Sequence record: MK047718.1
DNA: 64,000 nucleotides
Direction: 5' to 3' (one strand)
Source of the DNA: Escherichia phage p000y
The position numbers and the translations under genes were made by a program. Of this stretch, positions 8,507 through 58,844 are shown piece by piece (the stretch's first letter is position 1; every line of letters begins with the position of its first letter). Below the pieces are notes generated by a model. The model was not told where the DNA came from. It saw nothing but the letters and a program-made list of their open reading frames with translations, and ran no database searches.

Positions 8507-8525
8507 GGAGACTTCGGTCTCCTTT
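8507..8525 (+). terminator. CUUCGG-tetraloop hairpin downstream of gene 41 (weak U tract)
   Basis: GGAGAC-TTCG-GTCTCC followed by TTT. Confidence 0.4.
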
Positions 8526-30362: not shown

Positions 30363-30384
30363 GGGGACTTCGGTCCCCTTTTTT
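30363..30384 (+). terminator. Intrinsic terminator after rIIB
   Basis: GGGGAC-TTCG-GTCCCC followed by T6. Confidence 0.75.
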
Positions 30385-37775: not shown

Positions 37776-38327
37776 TTACTTAAAGATATTTATAATCGCT
37801 TTGATAATAGATTTGTTTTCAAGGTCAGGGAATTTAGGGAATTCGCCGCCAAGATGTTCATGTTTTTCTAAAAGGGCAAAGAATTTTTTGAGCTCTTTAA
37901 ATTTTCGTTTTTCTTCTCTATTAGCAACCTCTGCGTCAATAAGAGAACTTAAAACACTGAATAATTTATAGAGTTCATGAATTTTCTTATCACGTTGAAC
38001 TACGCGTTTATATGCTTCATCTTCCTTCCACCCGTCGTCGGTCCAAATGTCAAATTCACCAGGTTCTTCCGTAGTAACATTTTGAAGAGCACCCGGAGTG
38101 TCAATAACAATTTTTTGCTTATCATAAGTCCATACTGTTTTTCCACGATGGTCTTCAACATATACCCATTCTTGTTCGTGTTCATCAAATAAAACAGCAT
38201 AGCCTTCTTTAGGGTCTAAAGGTTTTTTTGGTGTTGAATGAGCCGGAAATCCTACACCTTTTAATGGTTTATAATTTTCTTCTTTGTAAAATTCTTTAGT
38301 GTCAAAATAATAATGATAGAGTTTCAT
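37776..38327 (-). CDS. 38: gp38 tail fibre assembly chaperone (T4 type)
   Basis: MKLYHYYFDTKEFYKEENYKPLKG...DIWTDDGWKEDE...FALLEKHEHLGGEFP matches T4 gp38 as recalled; 183 aa. Confidence 0.85.
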   Translation of the reverse strand: MKLYHYYFDTKEFYKEENYKPLKGVGFPAHSTPKKPLDPKEGYAVLFDEHEQEWVYVEDHRGKTVWTYDKQKIVIDTPGALQNVTTEEPGEFDIWTDDGWKEDEAYKRVVQRDKKIHELYKLFSVLSSLIDAEVANREEKRKFKELKKFFALLEKHEHLGGEFPKFPDLENKSIIKAIINIFK

Positions 38328-38357
38328 ATTATAAAAAGGGACCGAAGTCCCTTCTCC
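38328..38357 (-). promoter_or_regulatory. Hairpin between an SD and the gene 38 start codon (split ribosome-binding site, or 37/38 terminator)
   Basis: - strand reads UAA(37 stop)GGAGAA-GGGACUUCGGUCCC-UUUUUAUAAU-AUG(38). Confidence 0.5.
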
Positions 38358-41300
38358 TTATGCTAAACGAACGATATAGTTAAAAGCAACGTTTTTAACT
38401 GTGTTTTCTGTATTTCCTGTGGCATTTACAGTTATTGTATGTCCATGGGAACCAATCGCTACCGAATGAGAGTGGGCACCAATACCTACAGTATGTGTAT
38501 GGGCACCAATACCTACAGTATGCGCGTGGTTACCTGTGGTACTTGTGGTTCCTGACCAAGAGTGTGTATGGTTACCTTCTGAAGAAGTTTTGGCCATATT
38601 CGACGATGCGGTAGCACCACTCACGGTTGCAGTGAATTTAGCGTTACCGTTTGGACCCGCACTATTGTATCCATCATAGAATACGCTAGTGGGTATGCCG
38701 CCTTGTACCTGAGGACCTGAGCGCGCATGTTGGTGGTTACCTGCAGCACTTGTAGTTCCACTCACCGTATGGTTATGGTTACCTGTGGTATTACTGGTCT
38801 TAGTACCATAATCAAAGCTTGAAGTCGTTTTGCTACCGTAATCAAAACTAGAAGTGGTCTTAGTACCCAAATCTGTGCTTGATGCACTTGCACTATGGCT
38901 ATGTGACTTAACACCGTCTGCTTCTGTACTCAATACAGCACGCCCAGATGGTTTACCCTTGATAGTTTGACCACGCATATCAGGCAGAGTGCCGGAAGGA
39001 TACACCGCAGCTAACTTAGGATACAAGTCAGCATCAAATGTTTGACCTTCCATTATGGCATAACCTTCAGGAGGTGTATCAGTAGGCCAAGGAATCGGAG
39101 CACCGATTGGGTAACTCGAGACAATATCCGTCTTAAGGTTATTTATTGTTGTATTCAAGTTAGCAAAATTACCAGAACCACCAGTGATATTACCATCAGT
39201 ACCAATACGAACATTACCAGCGCCTAATTTACCAGGAGAATAAAAATCACCGTTTTTATTAAATTCCCATCCAAGATCCTTTATAACAGCACCAGTAGAA
39301 ACGCCGTCACCACCTTCGTGATAATGAACTCTAAAGTTACCACCATTAATTAAAGTACCAATAGAATAGCAACTATTATTTTGAACGTATCTTTGTTTCA
39401 CAATAGGAACATAAGTGCTTGTATCTGTTCTATCAATATTCATATAGAACGGAGCACGAACGTTTTCATTATTTTGTGAAGCAAAAGAACCGGCTCCAGC
39501 AGGTCGTGCAGTATCAGTACATTCAGCGTCGATATATGCCGATTGTCCTAATTGCATACGGTAATTAGGAGAAATACGACTATTACTAGTGATAACAACA
39601 AGTTTATTATCATTATCGACCGTTACCATATTACCGCCAGCACCATCATCGCCTAATGTAACGGAATGGCGCATTTGTACCATACCGTTGTTAAGAGAAA
39701 CACTCAATGGGCGAAGGTTAGAAATACCACCACTTTCACCTGCATCTTTAAGTGTAGGTATAATATGCAAAGACGCTTCAGAACGACGGAAAATAGCTCC
39801 ATATTCAGCATTGTAAATACGGAAAGCATCTGCGGTATTACCGATTTTAACTTGACCGGTAATAGAACCACCGCCGGATAAAACAAGCCCGTTATCCATA
39901 GTAACTTGTCCGGATAATGTACTTAATCCATTAACTCTAAGACTTCCATCGGTGATAATGCTCCCTCTTGCATTCAGTTGTCCATTAATTTGTGTTACAA
40001 CAGGTCCCACAGTTTCTGAACCGGTTGGAGCTACGCGCTGAGAATAAAAATAATATCCCTGCCCGTCAGCTACTTCAAAAACTGTTTCACGAGTACGATC
40101 GCCGGATGCGTTAAATGAATTACCCCATGCTTTAACAGTTACGTAGCTTTTATTCTGCCCAGCACGAGTACCACCTTCCCACAAAATTTGCTTAGTGCCA
40201 TCAACTGTAGTAGTTGGAGCGAATGTTAGCCCAGCAGTAGAATTATTAGCTGCTAAATATACACCATTATATATTGAAAGCTGCTTAGTGGATGTAATAC
40301 CGCCATCAGCATAAAACATCACATTATTTGCACCGGTTACCAATTTCAAAATACCCGGGTTAATTTCCATACCTTGTTGGGTATTGATATTCATCTGACC
40401 TGTACCACGGAAATAATGGGAAAATTTACCGCCAGAATTATATCCGATGTGGGTTTGACCATCACCTGCATTGTTTGTATCAGCCTGGGTTTGAACCGAT
40501 AAAAGCGCGGCGTTGGTTCCAGGCATTGTCCAGGTTCCGCCTTGGTCTTCTGAGCGTCCAAATAATGCTTTACGAGTACTACGGAAACTATCAGGAGTAA
40601 TAGAAGCAACAGAATTCCAATTACCTACTAAATCATAAACGCCTTGCTTAATATATTTTAAACCAGTTGCAGCATCGCCCAAAGCAATATATCTTTCTCC
40701 CATTGGAGTAGGAGAGCCGTAGTTGTTAGTATTTTCGTCAGCAGTAATTGTGCCAATAGCAAGTGAACGACGTAATACCATTGCTCCATCATTACGAAGA
40801 CCCATTAATTTAGTAGTAAGTGTATTTCCGGTCCACCAAGAAATTTCATCATTCTTACCAGTTTGAGCTGAAGCGATTTCATGGTAAATGGTTCCACCTG
40901 ATTTAGCTCGAACTTTACGAAGATAGTTTATACCATTTTCTTCACCTGTTCCAGGATAAACATATTGAACTAATGACTGCGAATCGTATTGTCCAAATGC
41001 TTTTGTGTCTAAAACAATGGTTTTCGTATTAACTTGTGGAGCAGAAACTATACCATTAGCGGAGTTAATATTGCCTGACGCAGAAATATTACCTTTGCTG
41101 ACAAATAAATCACCAGTGTCAACTTGGAAATTACCATTACGATTAAAAGTCCAATATTTCGAATCCCCAGTTTCATCAATATAATGGAACTTAAAACTGC
41201 CTTCAGCAACCAATGTACCCGCTGAAAACGTACCATCTTTATAACGTTGCTTAATGAGTGGATGATATTCTGAAATAGAAGTAGTTGAACTTAAATCTGT

Positions 41301-42337: not shown

Positions 42338-42361
42338 AAAAATGGGAGACCGAAGTCTCCC
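42338..42361 (-). terminator. Hairpin terminator between 35 and 36 (- strand)
   Basis: On the - strand GGGAGAC-TTCG-GTCTCCC then AUUUUU, immediately upstream of the gene 36 late promoter. Confidence 0.55.
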
Positions 42362-50676: not shown

Positions 50677-50698
50677 GGGAGACTTCGGTCTCCCTTTT
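50677..50698 (+). terminator. Intrinsic terminator after gene 32
   Basis: GGGAGAC-TTCG-GTCTCCC followed by T4. Confidence 0.7.
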
Positions 50699-53748: not shown

Positions 53749-55994
53749 CTAAGAGCAGTGGCGTATCCCAAAATTTTGATGCACAGAAAATTATCCAAGT
53801 TCTGACCTGGCAATGTGAAGGAACACAAATTGACCCATATGAATTGTACGAAGAAATTAAGACCCATCTTGTCGACGGGATGAGCACCAAAGATATTCAG
53901 AAGATTTGTATTAAAGTTGCAGCTAACTCGATTTCTGTCGAAGAACCTGATTATCAGTATGTCGCCGCCAAAGGGCTAATGTTTGCACTTCGTAAAGATG
54001 TGTATGGCCAGTTTGAACCGCCTGCTTTTATCGACCATATTTCTTATTGTGTTAATGAAGGCAAATATGACCCTGAGCTGTTGTCTCAATATTCAGCAGA
54101 AGAAATCATTTATCTCGATTCACAGATTAAACATGAACGAGACTTTGACCTGACTTATGCTGGTGCTATGCAACTTAAAGAAAAATATCTAGTTAAAGAT
54201 AAAACAACTGGGAAGATTTATGAAACTCCCCAGTTTGCTATCATGGCTATTGGCATGGCCTTACACCAAGACGAAACTCATGACCGTTTGAAACATATTA
54301 TTCGTTTTTATGATGCCGTTTCTACTCATCAAGTTTCATTGCCAACCCCAATTATGGCAGGTGCTCGTACTCCGACTCGCCAGTTTTCTAGTTGTGTAGT
54401 TATTGAAGCCGGTGATTCCTTAAAATCTATTAACAAAACTTCAGCATCAATTATTGAATATATTTCTAAACGAGCTGGTATTGGTATCAACGTTGGTATG
54501 CTTCGTGCAGAAGGTTCTAAGATCGGTATGGGTGAAGTTCGACATACGGGTGTTATTCCGTTCTGGAAACATTTCCAAACTGCAGTAAAATCTTGTTCTC
54601 AAGGCGGTATTCGTGGTGGTGCTGCTACAGCATATTATCCGATGTGGCACTTAGAAGTAGAGAACCTATTAGTTCTGAAAAATAACAAAGGCGTGGATGA
54701 AAACCGTATTCGACATATGGACTACGGAATTCAGATTAATGACCTTATGATGGAACGCCTTGGTAAAAATGATTATATTACTTTATTTAGCCCTCACGAA
54801 ATGTCAGGCGAACTATACTACTCGTTCTTTGAAGATCAAGATAAATTCCGTGAGCTTTATGAGAAAGCTGAAAAAGACCCAACAATCAGAAAGAAAAGAA
54901 TCAAAGCACTAGAACTCTTTGAATTGTTCATGACTGAACGTTCTGGCACCGCTCGAATTTATCCGCAATTCGTTGATAACACGAACAACTACACTCCATT
55001 TATTCGTGAAAAAGCTCCAATTCGTCAGAGTAACTTATGTTGTGAAATCGCTATTCCAACTAATGATGTGAATGGTCCTGATGCTGAAATTGGTTTATGC
55101 ACATTATCTGCTTTTGTATTAGATAAATTTGATTGGCAAGACCAAGATAAAATTAATGAACTTGCTGAAGTACAAGTACGTGCACTTGATAACCTGTTAG
55201 ACTATCAAGATTATCCGGTTCCAGAAGCTTTAAAAGCTAAAAAGCGTCGAAACCTCGGTGTTGGTGTGACGAACTATGCCGCATGGTTAGCTTCTAACTT
55301 TGCTTCATATGAAGACGCTAACGATTTGACTCATGAATTGTTTGAGAGATTGCAATATGGCCTTATCAAAGCATCAATCAAACTCGCCAAAGAAAAAGGA
55401 TGTTGCGAGTATTATTCAGACACTAAATGGTCTAGAGGCGAATTACCTATCGACTGGTACAATAAAAAGATTGACCAAATCGCAGCCCCGAACTACGTCT
55501 GTGACTGGGAAGAACTTCGAGCTGAACTCAAAGAACATGGAATTCGTAACTCAACGTTGTCTGCACTCATGCCTTGTGAGTCAAGCAGTCAAGTATCAAA
55601 CTCTACAAACGGGATTGAGCCACCACGTGGTCCAGTAAGTATTAAAGAATCTAAAGAAGGCAACTTCCGACAGGTTGTTCCTAATATCGAACATAACATG
55701 AGTCTTTACGACTACGCGTGGAAACTTGCTAAGAAAGGTAATAAACCTTATTTGACCCAAGTTGCTATCATGTTGAAATGGGTGTGCCAATCTGCTTCTG
55801 CTAATACTTACTATGACCCTGCAGTATTTGAGAAAGGTAAAGTGCCAATGTCAGTAATGCTTGACGATCTGCTTTACTTCTGGTACTTTGGCGGAAAAAA
55901 CCTCTACTATCATAACACTCGTGATGGGTCCGGTACAGACGACTATGAATTAGAAACACCTAAAGCAGAAGATTGTTCTGCTTGTAAGCTTTAA
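53739..55994 (+). CDS. nrdA: Ribonucleotide reductase alpha subunit (class Ia)
   Basis: 751 aa; N-terminal ATP-cone; active-site NLCCEI and C-terminal CxxC (CSACKL). Confidence 0.95.
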   Translation: MQVTKSSGVSQNFDAQKIIQVLTWQCEGTQIDPYELYEEIKTHLVDGMSTKDIQKICIKVAANSISVEEPDYQYVAAKGLMFALRKDVYGQFEPPAFIDHISYCVNEGKYDPELLSQYSAEEIIYLDSQIKHERDFDLTYAGAMQLKEKYLVKDKTTGKIYETPQFAIMAIGMALHQDETHDRLKHIIRFYDAVSTHQVSLPTPIMAGARTPTRQFSSCVVIEAGDSLKSINKTSASIIEYISKRAGIGINVGMLRAEGSKIGMGEVRHTGVIPFWKHFQTAVKSCSQGGIRGGAATAYYPMWHLEVENLLVLKNNKGVDENRIRHMDYGIQINDLMMERLGKNDYITLFSPHEMSGELYYSFFEDQDKFRELYEKAEKDPTIRKKRIKALELFELFMTERSGTARIYPQFVDNTNNYTPFIREKAPIRQSNLCCEIAIPTNDVNGPDAEIGLCTLSAFVLDKFDWQDQDKINELAEVQVRALDNLLDYQDYPVPEALKAKKRRNLGVGVTNYAAWLASNFASYEDANDLTHELFERLQYGLIKASIKLAKEKGCCEYYSDTKWSRGELPIDWYNKKIDQIAAPNYVCDWEELRAELKEHGIRNSTLSALMPCESSSQVSNSTNGIEPPRGPVSIKESKEGNFRQVVPNIEHNMSLYDYAWKLAKKGNKPYLTQVAIMLKWVCQSASANTYYDPAVFEKGKVPMSVMLDDLLYFWYFGGKNLYYHNTRDGSGTDDYELETPKAEDCSACKL

Positions 55995-56048
55995 GACTTT
56001 TTATTATAATTTACTCATGGATGAGTTAATAACTAAGTGAGAAATATA

Positions 56049-57227
56049 ATGAGTACAGTTTTTAACACACAACAAGTCGATGTTTTGAATGAACCGATGT
56101 TCTTTGGTTCTGGTCTTGGCCTCGCACGGTATGATATTCAGCGTCATAAAGTTTTTGAAGAGCTTATCGAAAAGCAGCTCTCGTTCTTTTGGCGTCCCGA
56201 GGAAGTAAACTTGATGTTGGATTCGGCCCAGTTTAATAAGCTTCCACAGTTCCAACAGGACATCTTTACCAACAACCTTAAGTATCAATCATTATTAGAT
56301 TCTATCCAAGGTAGAGCACCATCTGCGGTACTTATGTCATTGCTTTCAGACCCTTCATTAGATACATGGGTTGCTACATGGACTTTCAGTGAAACTATTC
56401 ACTCTCGTTCATATACTCATATTATGCGAAATCTTTATACAGATCCATCGAAGGTGTTTGATGAGATTGTATTAGATGAAGCTATTATGAAGCGTGCCGA
56501 ATCTATCGGACGATATTATGATGATGTTCTGGTTAAAGCTCGTTATTGGGAAAACGCTAAAGCTGATATCGAATACCAAAAAGAAATTAATGCAGACGAA
56601 GACGTTATTGAAGATGCTATTGAGCATGAGACATATTGGAAGCGTGAGCTAATGAAATCTCTTTACCTCTGTTTGCACGTTATTAATGCCTTAGAAGCTA
56701 TTCGTTTTTATGTATCTTTCGCATGCACCTTTAACTTCCACAAGAATATGGAAATCATGGAAGGTAATGCCAAGATTATGAAGTTCATTGCTCGTGATGA
56801 ACAGCTCCACCTCAAGGGCACTCAATATATTATTCGCGCTTTACAAGATGGCGAAGACGGTGATGAATGGGTCAAAATTGCTCAAGAGTGTGAACAAGAA
56901 GCAGTTGATATTTTCATGGAAGTTAACGCTCAAGAAAAAGAATGGGCTGAACACTTGTTTAAAGATGGTGCTCTTCCAGGTCTAAATGTTAAAATCCTAA
57001 GTGAATTTGTGGATTATCTTACCGTGTCTCGTATGCGTAGTTGTGGTCTGCCATGTCCTCTTAAAGACGTATCAACTCGTCATCCTATTCCATGGATTCG
57101 TGAGTATTTGAACTCTGATTTGGTTCAAGCAGCCCCACAAGAAGTTGAAATCAGTTCTTATCTTGTCGCACAAATTGATAATGATGTAGACCAAAATGTA
57201 ATCAATTCATACAAAAAATATTTCTAA
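56049..57227 (+). CDS. nrdB: Ribonucleotide reductase beta subunit (uninterrupted, no intron)
   Basis: About 392 aa; di-iron ligand motifs (ETIHSRSYTHI, EGNAKIMKFIARDEQLHL); ATG 56049 (the track start 56037 is 4 codons upstream). Confidence 0.9.
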   Translation: MSTVFNTQQVDVLNEPMFFGSGLGLARYDIQRHKVFEELIEKQLSFFWRPEEVNLMLDSAQFNKLPQFQQDIFTNNLKYQSLLDSIQGRAPSAVLMSLLSDPSLDTWVATWTFSETIHSRSYTHIMRNLYTDPSKVFDEIVLDEAIMKRAESIGRYYDDVLVKARYWENAKADIEYQKEINADEDVIEDAIEHETYWKRELMKSLYLCLHVINALEAIRFYVSFACTFNFHKNMEIMEGNAKIMKFIARDEQLHLKGTQYIIRALQDGEDGDEWVKIAQECEQEAVDIFMEVNAQEKEWAEHLFKDGALPGLNVKILSEFVDYLTVSRMRSCGLPCPLKDVSTRHPIPWIREYLNSDLVQAAPQEVEISSYLVAQIDNDVDQNVINSYKKYF

Positions 57228-57253
57228 GGACGGGACTTCGGTCCCACTTTATT
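57225..57253 (+). promoter_or_regulatory. Hairpin between an SD and the denA start codon (split ribosome-binding site)
   Basis: UAAGGAC-GGGACUUCGGUCCC-ACUUUAUU-AUG; same architecture as at gene 38. Confidence 0.45.
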
Positions 57254-57664
57254 ATGAAAGATATCGCCGCCGAATATTCCTTTATTAAATATACAGAATT
57301 GGAGCTATTAGAAGATGCAACAATTAAAACAGTTGATGTCCCTAATAAGAAAAATGTCATATATGCTATTGCTATAGATGACGAACTTGTGTATATTGGT
57401 AAAACCAAGAATTTAAAGAAACGCATTAACTATTATCGAACAGCCATAAATCGAAAAGACCAGACTTCAGATTCAAGAAAATCACTTATGATTTTGGATG
57501 CCTTAATGCAAGGCAAAAAGGTTGAATTCTGGGCCCGCCAATGTTTTGACCTTTCAGTCACCAACGAACTTGGTTCAATGACCATCGCAACAATGGACCT
57601 TGAAGAACCACTTTTTATCAAAAAGTTCAACCCGCCTTGGAATATCCAACATAAGAAAAAGTAG
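57254..57664 (+). CDS. denA: Endonuclease II (DenA), GIY-YIG family
   Basis: 136 aa (T4 DenA is 136 aa); GIY-YIG-like VIYAIAIDDELVYIGKTKNLKKRINYY; position after nrdB. Confidence 0.8.
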   Translation: MKDIAAEYSFIKYTELELLEDATIKTVDVPNKKNVIYAIAIDDELVYIGKTKNLKKRINYYRTAINRKDQTSDSRKSLMILDALMQGKKVEFWARQCFDLSVTNELGSMTIATMDLEEPLFIKKFNPPWNIQHKKK

Positions 57665-57693
57665 TTTACATACCACAAGGATTGTGGTACAAT
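57664..57693 (+). promoter_or_regulatory. T4-type early promoter with spacer hairpin ACCACAA-GGA-TTGTGGT
   Basis: GTTTAC, 18-nt spacer, TACAAT; upstream of rnlA. Confidence 0.55.
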
Positions 57694-57710
57694 TTAAAAA
57701 AACTAACTGA

Positions 57711-58844
<1,134 letters not shown>

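Follow-up and report, generated by a model that had tools for sequence, protein, structure and literature searches.

The junction between nrdB and denA

The window, i.e., the whole stretch of 64,000 nucleotides analyzed here, comes from a phage that is related and nearly identical to Escherichia phage APCEc01 (Mosigvirus, T4-like). On its plus strand nrdB is followed by denA. The reading frame of nrdB comes from the open reading frame (ORF) list and its product name from related records, while its start is set as in the annotation of KR422352.1 (43619..44797, local offset 12430). The genes and the features between them are:

56049-57227, plus strand: nrdB (ribonucleotide reductase small subunit), intron-less
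57225-57227, plus strand: nrdB stop codon TAA
57226-57230, plus strand: Shine-Dalgarno (SD) motif AAGGA, which overlaps the nrdB TAA and ends 23 nt from the denA AUG
57232-57245, plus strand: C(UUCG)G tetraloop hairpin GGGACTTCGGTCCC, which begins 4 nt past the nrdB TAA
57232-57236, plus strand: 5' arm of the hairpin, GGGAC
57237-57240, plus strand: loop, UUCG
57241-57245, plus strand: 3' arm, GUCCC
57246-57253, plus strand: 8-nt spacer ACUUUAUU between hairpin and AUG, U-rich and without an SD
57254-57664, plus strand: denA (endonuclease II, GIY-YIG), 136 aa, with its ATG at 57254-57256

The junction thus reads TATTTC TAA GGAC GGGAC TTCG GTCCC ACTTTATT ATG AAA GAT, which confirms what the sequence-only reading had described at 57225-57256: an nrdB stop codon that overlaps AAGGA, then a 14-nt hairpin and then the denA ATG. 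TAAGGA agrees with the anti-SD complement over 6 nt, and the nrdB stop and denA start codons are 26 nt apart in the window, with no stop/start overlap of the ATGA type.

The start of denA is secure, because the ORF check found no in-frame start 5' of 57254, the next in-frame Met is residue 79, past the GIY-YIG motif, and the N-terminus MK.IA.E(Y/F)SFIKY is kept in relatives. Translation of denA from a different start, which would have undermined the sequence-only reading, is therefore not borne out. An in-frame ATG that adjoins the SD in JS98-type sequences (AAGGAATGGGGC...) was rejected as a start; it offers no usable spacing and is not conserved.

The SD of denA is unusually far from its start codon. 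Its anchor distance is 25 nt, compared with a median of 9-10 nt (5th-95th percentile, 7-12) for the canonical SDs found in 208 of the 271 genes of the reference genome; these gene-wide statistics were computed on the reference record (KR422352.1) itself, as the window is not perfectly colinear with it. No second SD match of at least 4 nt is found at a distance of 6-15 nt from the denA start in the window. When the hairpin is subtracted, the effective SD-AUG distance is 11.

The denA hairpin, GGGAC-UUCG-GUCCC, has a 5-bp stem with 4 G-C pairs and a UUCG loop closed by C-G on a short helix, and is thus a member of the extra-stable C(UUCG)G tetraloop hairpin family described in PMC4371310. Its predicted free energy is -7.5 kcal/mol when folded alone, and it appears in the centroid fold of region 57195-57290, whose fold as a whole has a z-score of -0.05. 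A long-range pairing of AAGGA with UCCUU at 57278-57282, found in the minimum free energy fold of the same region, was rejected: it accounts for only 0.9% of the ensemble, and T4 has UUCAUU in place of UCCUU, which also counts against it. An Rfam scan of 56800-57800 with E-values up to 10 returned only chance-level matches far under the gathering scores. No promoter-like hexamer pair is found in 57200-57260, the nearest being at 57369 and 57665.

Conservation among T-even relatives

The same order of SD, hairpin and AUG precedes denA at 25 other distinct junctions of T-even-type phages, including T4, to give a set of 26 distinct junctions whose denA proteins are 57-100% identical; distant GIY-YIG matches (L075-L080) are in unrelated contexts and were left out. 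An SD (AAGGA, AAGGAG, AAGG or AAGAG) is found at the same place, just 5' of the stem, in 26 of 26 junctions, and is kept in every one while the adjacent nrdB codons and the spacer have diverged. The spacer from hairpin to AUG varies only from 7 to 10 nt and contains no SD in any of the 26 junctions. Neither the SD nor the AUG lies within the core stem in the window and most relatives. Cleavage of a GGAG SD by RegB would be possible in T4 (AAGGAG); such a site is not a conserved feature, because the window has AAGGAC, and it was not retained as a candidate.

The linear SD-AUG distance ranges from 24 to 30 nt across relatives, and removal of the hairpin leaves an effective distance of 9-15 nt with a mode of 12 (two rows of the table were hand-corrected), which is on the long side of the canonical 9-10 and to which the base of the helix adds more. 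As the linear distance rises to 30 with unchanged flanks where the stem is longer (18 nt in L058), the conserved quantity is the effective spacing rather than the linear distance. The loops vary among the junctions (UUCG, GCAA, GUAA, UUUG, UUAG or CUUGA), all of them on short GC stems. When the 22 distinct hairpins with 4-nt loops were aligned, 96.2% of the cells paired and 4 of 6 pairs had compensatory changes, and none of 500 shuffles reached the covariation score, although this alignment (A3) was centered on a hairpin found by pairing and its sequences are related, both of which inflate covariation statistics. A MAFFT alignment (A2) independently placed the hairpin arms in register. The relatives that lack the hairpin (L066, Aeh1 and avDM3) also lack the distant SD and possess an ATGA stop/start overlap instead. 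That the SD-hairpin-AUG architecture is under selection is shown by its conservation, its covariation and its constant spacing across the 26 distinct junctions.

Gene 38, gene 25 and copies of the hairpin

The exact 14-mer GGGACTTCGGTCCC is found three times in the window (30364+, 38338- and 57232+), and there are six matches with no more than 2 mismatches where 0.13 are expected, a number that 0 of 100 shuffles reached. The features at the other two exact copies are:

38325-38360, minus strand: junction of the gene 37 stop and the gene 38 split ribosome-binding site, the comparator, which contains the exact 14-mer
38360-38358, minus strand: TAA
38359-38354, minus strand: AAGGAG
38351-38338, minus strand: hairpin, followed by a spacer to 38328
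38327-38325, minus strand: gene 38 ATG
38356-38333, minus strand: extent of the gene 38 stem when extended to 10 bp
30364-30377, plus strand: third exact 14-mer, in the order stop, hairpin, CTTTTTTCTTT and then SD, with an ATG 21 nt past the stem

The copy at 38338(-) sits between the gene 37 stop and SD (TAAGGAGAA) and the ATG of gene 38, in line with the layout that the sequence-only reading had given for this gene. At 30364 the SD-hairpin-AUG layout is absent; that copy is terminator-like, with an ordinary SD downstream and a T-tail score of 4.99.

T4 gene 38 has a split ribosome-binding site (Gold 1988, as summarized in PMC3014915 and PMC7297116). Its site, compared by tblastn on phage records, resembles that of denA in that the upstream stop overlaps the SD (UAAGGAG), a 14-nt hairpin of the C(UUCG)G type lies 1-2 nt past the SD, and an A/U-rich spacer of 8-10 nt leads to the AUG. 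In T4 itself the spacing of the two sites agrees to the nucleotide (TAAGGAG, 1 nt, 14-nt hairpin, 8 nt, ATG), so that the claim of a shared architecture holds. The sites also differ: gene 38 belongs to the late 37-38 unit on the other strand, whereas nrdB-denA runs in the direction of early/middle genes; the gene 38 stem reaches 9-10 bp via A-U and G-U pairs, which the denA stem in the window cannot do because of a C/A mismatch; and the split site has experimental support at gene 38, while at denA it is deduced from sequence. Relatives of gp38 were found at only two loci in viral contigs, since gp38 is variable.

The second known case is found in T4 where gene 25 follows gene 26 (26-25 junction; Nivinskas et al. 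1999; Malys and Nivinskas 2009, as reported in PMC3014915), where the SD is 27 nt from the AUG and an intervening hairpin restores functional spacing. It is present in close T-even phages and absent from distant T4-like phages, the same pattern as that of denA. Unlike the intergenic GC tetraloop hairpin of denA, that of gene 25 has an A/U-rich stem of 7 bp (CUCAAAG-AAUU-CUUUGAG), lies within the end of the gene 26 coding sequence and lacks a terminator-like tail. The E. coli thrS site, a split ribosomal binding site (Sacerdot et al. 1998, as cited in PMC7297116), likewise has a hairpin that interrupts the elements of the translation initiation region; it differs in that the hairpin is a protein-binding operator between an upstream single-stranded enhancer and a normally spaced SD, while nothing suggests a protein ligand at denA. 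A blind scan for the layout over the 271 annotated genes of the reference genome returned denA and just two others, genes 25 and 38, which are the published, experimentally supported split sites (PMC3014915; PMC7297116), whose layout is reported to enhance translation (PMC3014915; PMC7297116).

The identity of the denA and gene 38 hairpins might also have arisen by duplication or gene conversion of a mobile regulatory cassette, a reading that we consider highly improbable. Recombination between stem-loop cassettes is documented for the promoter-stem-loop cassettes (PeSLs) of RB49-type phages (PMC2839356) and provides a precedent; three exact 14-mers and three copies of GAGACTTCGGTCTC in 64 kb, as well as GAC-UUCG-GUC in 6 of the 11 intergenic C(UUCG)G hairpins of the window, would be in keeping with such an origin. 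However, the identity does not go beyond the stem, and the two window copies have non-homologous flanks (GGAC vs. GGAGAA and ACTTTATT vs. TTTTTATAAT for denA and gene 38, respectively). The hairpins at the two sites are also unlike in T4 (GGGCC-GCAA-GGCCC at denA vs. GGGGC-UUCG-GCCCC at gene 38), in Moon and in contig 2706795401, the close relative L081 has a UUCU loop at gene 38, and no sigma-70-like promoter of the kind that defines a PeSL lies beside the hairpin. As the number of different 5-bp GC stems able to close C(UUCG)G is small, coincidence is likely. Of the reused translational control module that was suggested from the shared layout, what stands is a shared and selected layout (26 junctions), whereas the identical 14-mer is incidental and no evidence of copying; the hairpin belongs to a general class, with 11 intergenic members in the window.

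A proposed split ribosome-binding site and a probable role at the 3' end of the nrdA-nrdB message

We propose, with a probability of roughly 0.6, that a very stable tetraloop hairpin makes a non-contiguous (split) ribosome-binding site of the nrdB-denA junction. At 23 nt from the AUG, the denA SD (UAAGGA) would be too distant to work on linear RNA; the 14-nt hairpin would fold between the two and loop itself out, so that the 30S subunit would meet an SD and an AUG that are ~9 nt apart plus the width of the helix base. The mode of action would be that of T4 genes 38 and 25, and the hairpin would permit or enhance initiation at denA. Given that its geometry is the same as that of the T4 gene 38 split site, denA is probably the third, and apparently undescribed, example of this known T4 type; no description of or experimental data on the nrdB-denA hairpin or the denA ribosome-binding site of any phage was found in the literature.

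The same hairpin could instead be inhibitory, by keeping the SD too distant or by hindering access of the 30S subunit, so that little DenA nuclease would be made. Structured initiation regions restrain other T4 nuclease genes (I-TevI, mobE and segB; PMC3014915), DenA nuclease is needed in catalytic amounts only, and in T4 additional G-U and A-U pairs could lengthen the denA stem so far that the SD is partly covered, a point that also weighs against a split site. Such an effect is nevertheless very unlikely: the SD and AUG lie outside the core stem in the window and most relatives, a stable looped-out hairpin shortens rather than lengthens the SD-AUG path, the same layout is reported to enhance translation of genes 38 and 25, and loss of the SD, which is conserved nonetheless, would by itself suffice for low expression.

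Several features of the site are those of intrinsic (Rho-independent) terminators. The hairpin is GC-rich and just 3' of a stop codon. The spacer is 67% U over the 26 junctions, compared with 28% T and 47% A in control -8..-1 regions, and U is found at positions 1-5 past the stem in 18-22 of the 26. A simple terminator scan calls the site terminator-like, and in the ATK48 and DalCa records it bears the label of a putative rho-independent terminator, which in both is a software prediction. Within the window, 9 of the 11 intergenic C(UUCG)G hairpins are plain stop-hairpin-U-tract elements. The T4 intercistronic C(UUCG)G hairpins (Tuerk et al. 1988, as recounted in PMC4371310) share with the denA site a short GC stem just past a stop and a U-rich tract after it. 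They differ from the denA site, where the AUG is 8 nt past the stem, the SD is before the stem and the U-tract of the window is weak. The interrupted tail of the window, ACUUUAUU (vs. AUUUUAUU in T4), scores 1.22 as a T-tail, lower than any other UUCG hairpin in the window; the other hairpins there score 2.5-5.0, the relatives 1.5-4.5 and the 90th percentile of the background 1.94. Nor does a promoter follow the denA hairpin.

These features raise the possibility, which we regard as real but doubtful, that the hairpin serves solely at the 3' end of the nrdA-nrdB message (as a terminator/attenuator and/or exonuclease barrier) and that denA is translated mainly by re-initiation. Ribosomes would stop at the nrdB UAA, 27 nt upstream, AAGGA would either help to keep them on the message or play no part, and de novo initiation would not profit from the hairpin. 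A stop codon that overlaps an SD is typical of coupled genes; the SD could serve ribosomes terminating at the nrdB stop instead of a split site, and the U-richness of the spacer, which a split site does not need, points to a terminator role. Moreover, gene 38 of Moon and denA of JSE keep the hairpin with an ordinary SD downstream of it, which indicates that the hairpin has a role independent of the split SD. A 3'-end element alone does not explain why an SD invariably sits directly 5' of the stem, why the AUG always comes 7-10 nt past it, or why no SD is found downstream. It is also at odds with the identical geometry of T4 gene 38, reported to enhance initiation (PMC3014915), and with the lack of a promoter-like site between hairpin and denA, because of which efficient termination would silence denA. 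Finally, the lineage of the window, despite having the poorest U-tail, keeps the element intact; the constant features, namely SD, hairpin and spacing, are thus those that a split ribosome-binding site needs.

That the hairpin might act as a terminator only was offered as a refutation of the sequence-only reading. Terminator-like features are indeed present, but the two roles may coexist. Besides its proposed part in a split ribosome-binding site, the hairpin probably serves the nrdA-nrdB message as a 3'-end element, and we infer an effect on transcript ends, whether as a weak intrinsic terminator or attenuator and/or as a barrier to 3' exonucleases; no literature on T4 or Mosigvirus transcript 3' ends at nrdB-denA was found. 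As the 26-nt gap contains no promoter-like site, transcription of denA from any upstream start has to pass through the hairpin, which could therefore keep denA expression lower than that of nrdB and yet allow denA to be translated. A more elaborate and unlikely reading is that of a terminator inside a ribosome-binding site, first an attenuator and then a translational enhancer, which would gate denA on nrdB translation. A ribosome at the nrdB UAA, 4 nt from the stem, would block the hairpin while the polymerase crosses the U-rich tract, so that only actively translated nrdB messages would be read through into denA; when the ribosome leaves, the hairpin would snap shut and bridge SD and AUG for denA initiation. 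If true, this design would be conserved across T-even phages and common to gene 38.

Split ribosome-binding sites are textbook curiosities that are known from very few genes. As examples of this type, reviews of 2010 and 2020 name no genes other than 38 and 25 of T4. Annotators who label the denA hairpin a terminator may miss the real denA ribosome-binding site. A third case would be an incremental addition to phage biology and not a new principle. It would be valuable in that it occurs in T4 itself and shows covariation across many T-even phage genera, and natural variants without the hairpin, or with an SD past it, would provide a ready comparative and mutational system. With such a system, it may be asked how a helix that separates the SD from the start codon fits into the 30S subunit, and whether the same hairpin can work in the formation of transcript ends as well as in the initiation of translation.

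The nrdB-denA junction and SD-to-start distances

In the window, the junction between nrdB and denA reads ...AAA AAA TAT TTC TAA GGAC GGGAC TTCG GTCCC ACTTTATT ATG AAA GAT..., with the following features.

57225-57227, + strand: nrdB stop codon TAA, closing an ORF of 392-396 aa
57232-57245, + strand: denA hairpin, between SD and ATG
57254, + strand: start codon ATG of denA (endonuclease II), a 136-aa ORF

The sequence-only reading had described an nrdB stop overlapping an AAGGA element, followed by a 14-nt hairpin and the denA start, and its coordinates and wording are correct on re-reading the window. Judged from the sequence, the denA start is unambiguous, and its position at 57254 holds: upstream in-frame alternatives are absent, Met recurs only at residue 79 and relatives have a conserved N-terminus. 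The 501 nt tested around denA are 100% identical to those of Escherichia phage APCEc01 (KR422352.1, Mosigvirus, Tevenvirinae); the window is not perfectly colinear with this genome, as one coordinate offset fails (e.g., RNA ligase start 57720 vs. predicted 57721), so that it comes from a close relative or from an isolate assembled differently. In the MFE fold, the denA SD AAGGA (57226-57230) pairs with UCCUU at 57278-57282, inside denA codons 9-10; this pairing makes up 0.9% of the ensemble, is not conserved in T4 and was rejected.

SD-start distances were determined across the full set of 271 annotated CDS in KR422352.1, after matching the SD to the 3' end of 16S rRNA. An SD of at least 4 nt lies at 6-15 nt in 208 of them (median 9). 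The remaining CDS were scanned for an SD 16-45 nt upstream and a hairpin wholly between SD and start that restores an effective distance of 6-15, which returned exactly three genes: denA (25 nt linear, 11 effective), gene 25 (31 nt linear, 13 effective) and gene 38 (29 nt linear, 7-15 effective, by the amount of stem counted). Split RBSs have been described and tested in two T4 genes, 38 and 25 (PMC3014915; PMC7297116); therefore, both positive controls were recovered and denA is the sole addition. The split-RBS mechanism is already known and the gene 38 instance in the window already published. Genes 38 and 25 are the only split RBSs of this type listed in reviews of 2010 and 2020 (PMC3014915; PMC7297116). 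A denA split RBS did not come up in the literature that could be searched. We propose, with a probability of roughly 0.6, that the nrdB-denA junction is a split RBS.

Conservation and proposed mechanism

In two DenA scans of viral contigs and in phage GenBank records, the split layout is found at 26 distinct nrdB-denA junctions, whose DenA proteins are 57-100% identical to that of the window. All 26 possess an SD (AAGGA, AAGGAG, AAGG or AAGAG) 0-4 nt 5' of the stem, mostly overlapping TAA, and an SD-free gap of 7-10 nt between stem and ATG. The linear SD-AUG distance ranges from 24 to 30 and tracks stem length, reaching 30 in a relative with an 18-nt hairpin (locus L058), and the effective distance ranges from 9 to 15 with a mode of 12 (rows of loci L034 and L035 corrected by hand). 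The T4 junction is TAAGGAG-T-GGGCC GCAA GGCCC-ATTTTATT-ATG; stems elsewhere are GGGGC, GGGCC, (A/G/C/T)AGGGC, GAGGGC and GGGAGAC, and the loops in relatives are UUCG or, more rarely, GCAA, GUAA, UUUG, UUAG, CUUGA and CUUGU. Across 22 distinct hairpins, 96.2% of cells are paired and four of the six pairs have changes on both sides; the covariation score was reached by 0/500 column shuffles, and pairing in slid registers drops to 20-67%. These figures come with two caveats, the relatedness of the sequences and an alignment centred on the hairpin, although MAFFT without such centring had already brought the arms into register. We conclude that the constant, selected features of the junction are those of a split RBS.

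Some lineages carry additional features. In T4-type junctions (L031, L036-L040), the denA SD AAGGAG includes GGAG, the motif cleaved by RegB, and the stem is extendable via G-U/A-U pairs, GGAGU with AUUUU; unlike these, the window has neither the motif (AAGGAC) nor the extension (C/A mismatch). JS98-type phages (L044-L050; junction TAAGGAATGGGGCTTCGGCCCCTTATTGCTATG) have an in-frame ATG at the hairpin's 5' foot, eight codons before the conserved denA start; this ATG lies right against the SD and is unlikely to serve as a start.

The whole scheme that we infer for denA runs from folding to re-initiation. The hairpin would fold immediately upon transcription, given the exceptional stability of the C(UUCG)G type (PMC4371310), and UAAGGA would pair with the 30S subunit. 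Once the helix is looped out, SD and AUG would be separated by about 1 + 8 unpaired nt and by the width of its base, which would bring AUG into the P site; the same arrangement has been proposed for genes 38 and 25. The hairpin would be melted transiently by ribosomes finishing nrdB, which may also feed re-initiation. An inhibitory role of the hairpin appears very improbable.

Relation to the gene 38 hairpin

The 14-mer GGGACTTCGGTCCC has three exact copies in 64 kb and six with at most two mismatches vs. 0.13 expected. Between its genes the window has eleven C(UUCG)G hairpins with GC-rich stems, nine of which follow a stop codon and precede a T-run, with the SD and ATG of the next gene further downstream. 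As the sequence-only reading had noticed, denA and gene 38 share the SD-hairpin-ATG layout, and they are the sole two so placed (57232-57245 and, on the minus strand, 38338-38351). The inner stem GAC-UUCG-GUC is common to six of the 11, three GGGAC and three G(G)GAGAC; a preferred stem or earlier recombination among the hairpins may lie behind this.

Hairpins with GAC-UUCG-GUC
8508-8521, + strand: intergenic hairpin
30364, + strand: exact 14-mer copy
38338-38351, - strand: gene 38 hairpin
42346-42359, - strand: intergenic hairpin
50679-50692, + strand: intergenic hairpin
57232-57245, + strand: denA hairpin

That the two sites represent a reused module stands for geometry, which in T4 is the same to the nucleotide (TAAGGAG-A-hairpin-TTCTAAAT-ATG for gene 38, TAAGGAG-T-hairpin-ATTTTATT-ATG for denA, each hairpin 14 nt), but not for the hairpin itself: those of T4 are unlike (GGGGC-UUCG in gene 38, GGGCC-GCAA in denA), those of Citrobacter phage Moon and contig 2706795401 also differ, and identity between the window's copies stops at the stem. 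Coincidence, given how few 5-bp GC stems can close C(UUCG)G, or else a local event is therefore the best reading of the shared 14-mer, which is no evidence of a copied cassette. The denA hairpin has no promoter-like element beside it, so it is not a cassette of the PeSL type (the promoter-early stem-loop of RB49-type phages); descent of the hairpin from any copied cassette is scarcely credible. At the 37/38 junction of L081, whose gp38 is 98% identical to that of the window, the loop is TTCT rather than TTCG (GGGACTTCTGTCCC), so that the extra-stable tetraloop is lost in a very close relative.

Terminator features and natural variants

The hairpin might instead be a terminator, with coupling only. 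A simple terminator scan flags it as terminator-like, two public records, on the strength of ARNold and MFOLD predictions, label it a putative rho-independent terminator, and U makes up 67% and A 17% of the spacer that follows the stem in the junctions, vs. 47% A and 28% T at -8 to -1 of 76 control genes. However, the window's tail (ACUUUAUU) has a T-tail score of 1.22, against 2.5-5.0 for other UUCG hairpins and a background 90th percentile of 1.94, and despite this weak tail the SD, stem and spacing are intact. Neither an SD at the 5' foot nor a start codon 8 nt from the 3' foot is needed by a terminator. As the 26-nt gap holds no promoter-like site, any denA transcript that begins farther upstream must run through the hairpin. 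We thus regard a terminator with coupling only as rather unlikely; alongside the split RBS, a second function, as a leaky terminator or in stabilising RNA, is likely and would vary between lineages.

Promoter-like sites were seen directly 5' of nrdB (55982-56010, + strand; TTGTAA-17-TATAAT) and directly 3' of denA, 5' of the RNA ligase gene (57665-57693, + strand; TTTACA-17-TACAAT with TG). If both are real promoters, the nrd transcription unit would end with denA.

At the 37/38 junction of Moon (L084), the GC hairpin is kept after the stop and an ordinary SD lies downstream (GAGGAAACT-ATG), and before denA of the RB49-like phage JSE (L089) a hairpin and U-tract are followed by an ordinary SD (GAGGAAAGGATA-ATG); therefore, the hairpin persists with or without a split RBS. 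A distant SD is seen only together with a hairpin. Both hairpin and SD are lost in L066 (contig 2974786931, 167773 nt, Yersinia-phage-type), where the genes overlap as TTATGA, and Aeromonas phages Aeh1 and avDM3 (L091/L090), with neither hairpin nor SD, have denA overlapping the upstream gene by ATGA. Thus, there are three solutions to the junction: the split form, the ATGA overlap and the hairpin followed by an ordinary SD. The split form is limited to Tevenvirinae with adjacent nrdB and denA, a phylogenetic restriction much like that published for gene 25 (PMC3014915), and L066, Aeh1 and avDM3, as natural hairpin-less variants, could serve as an experimental comparison.
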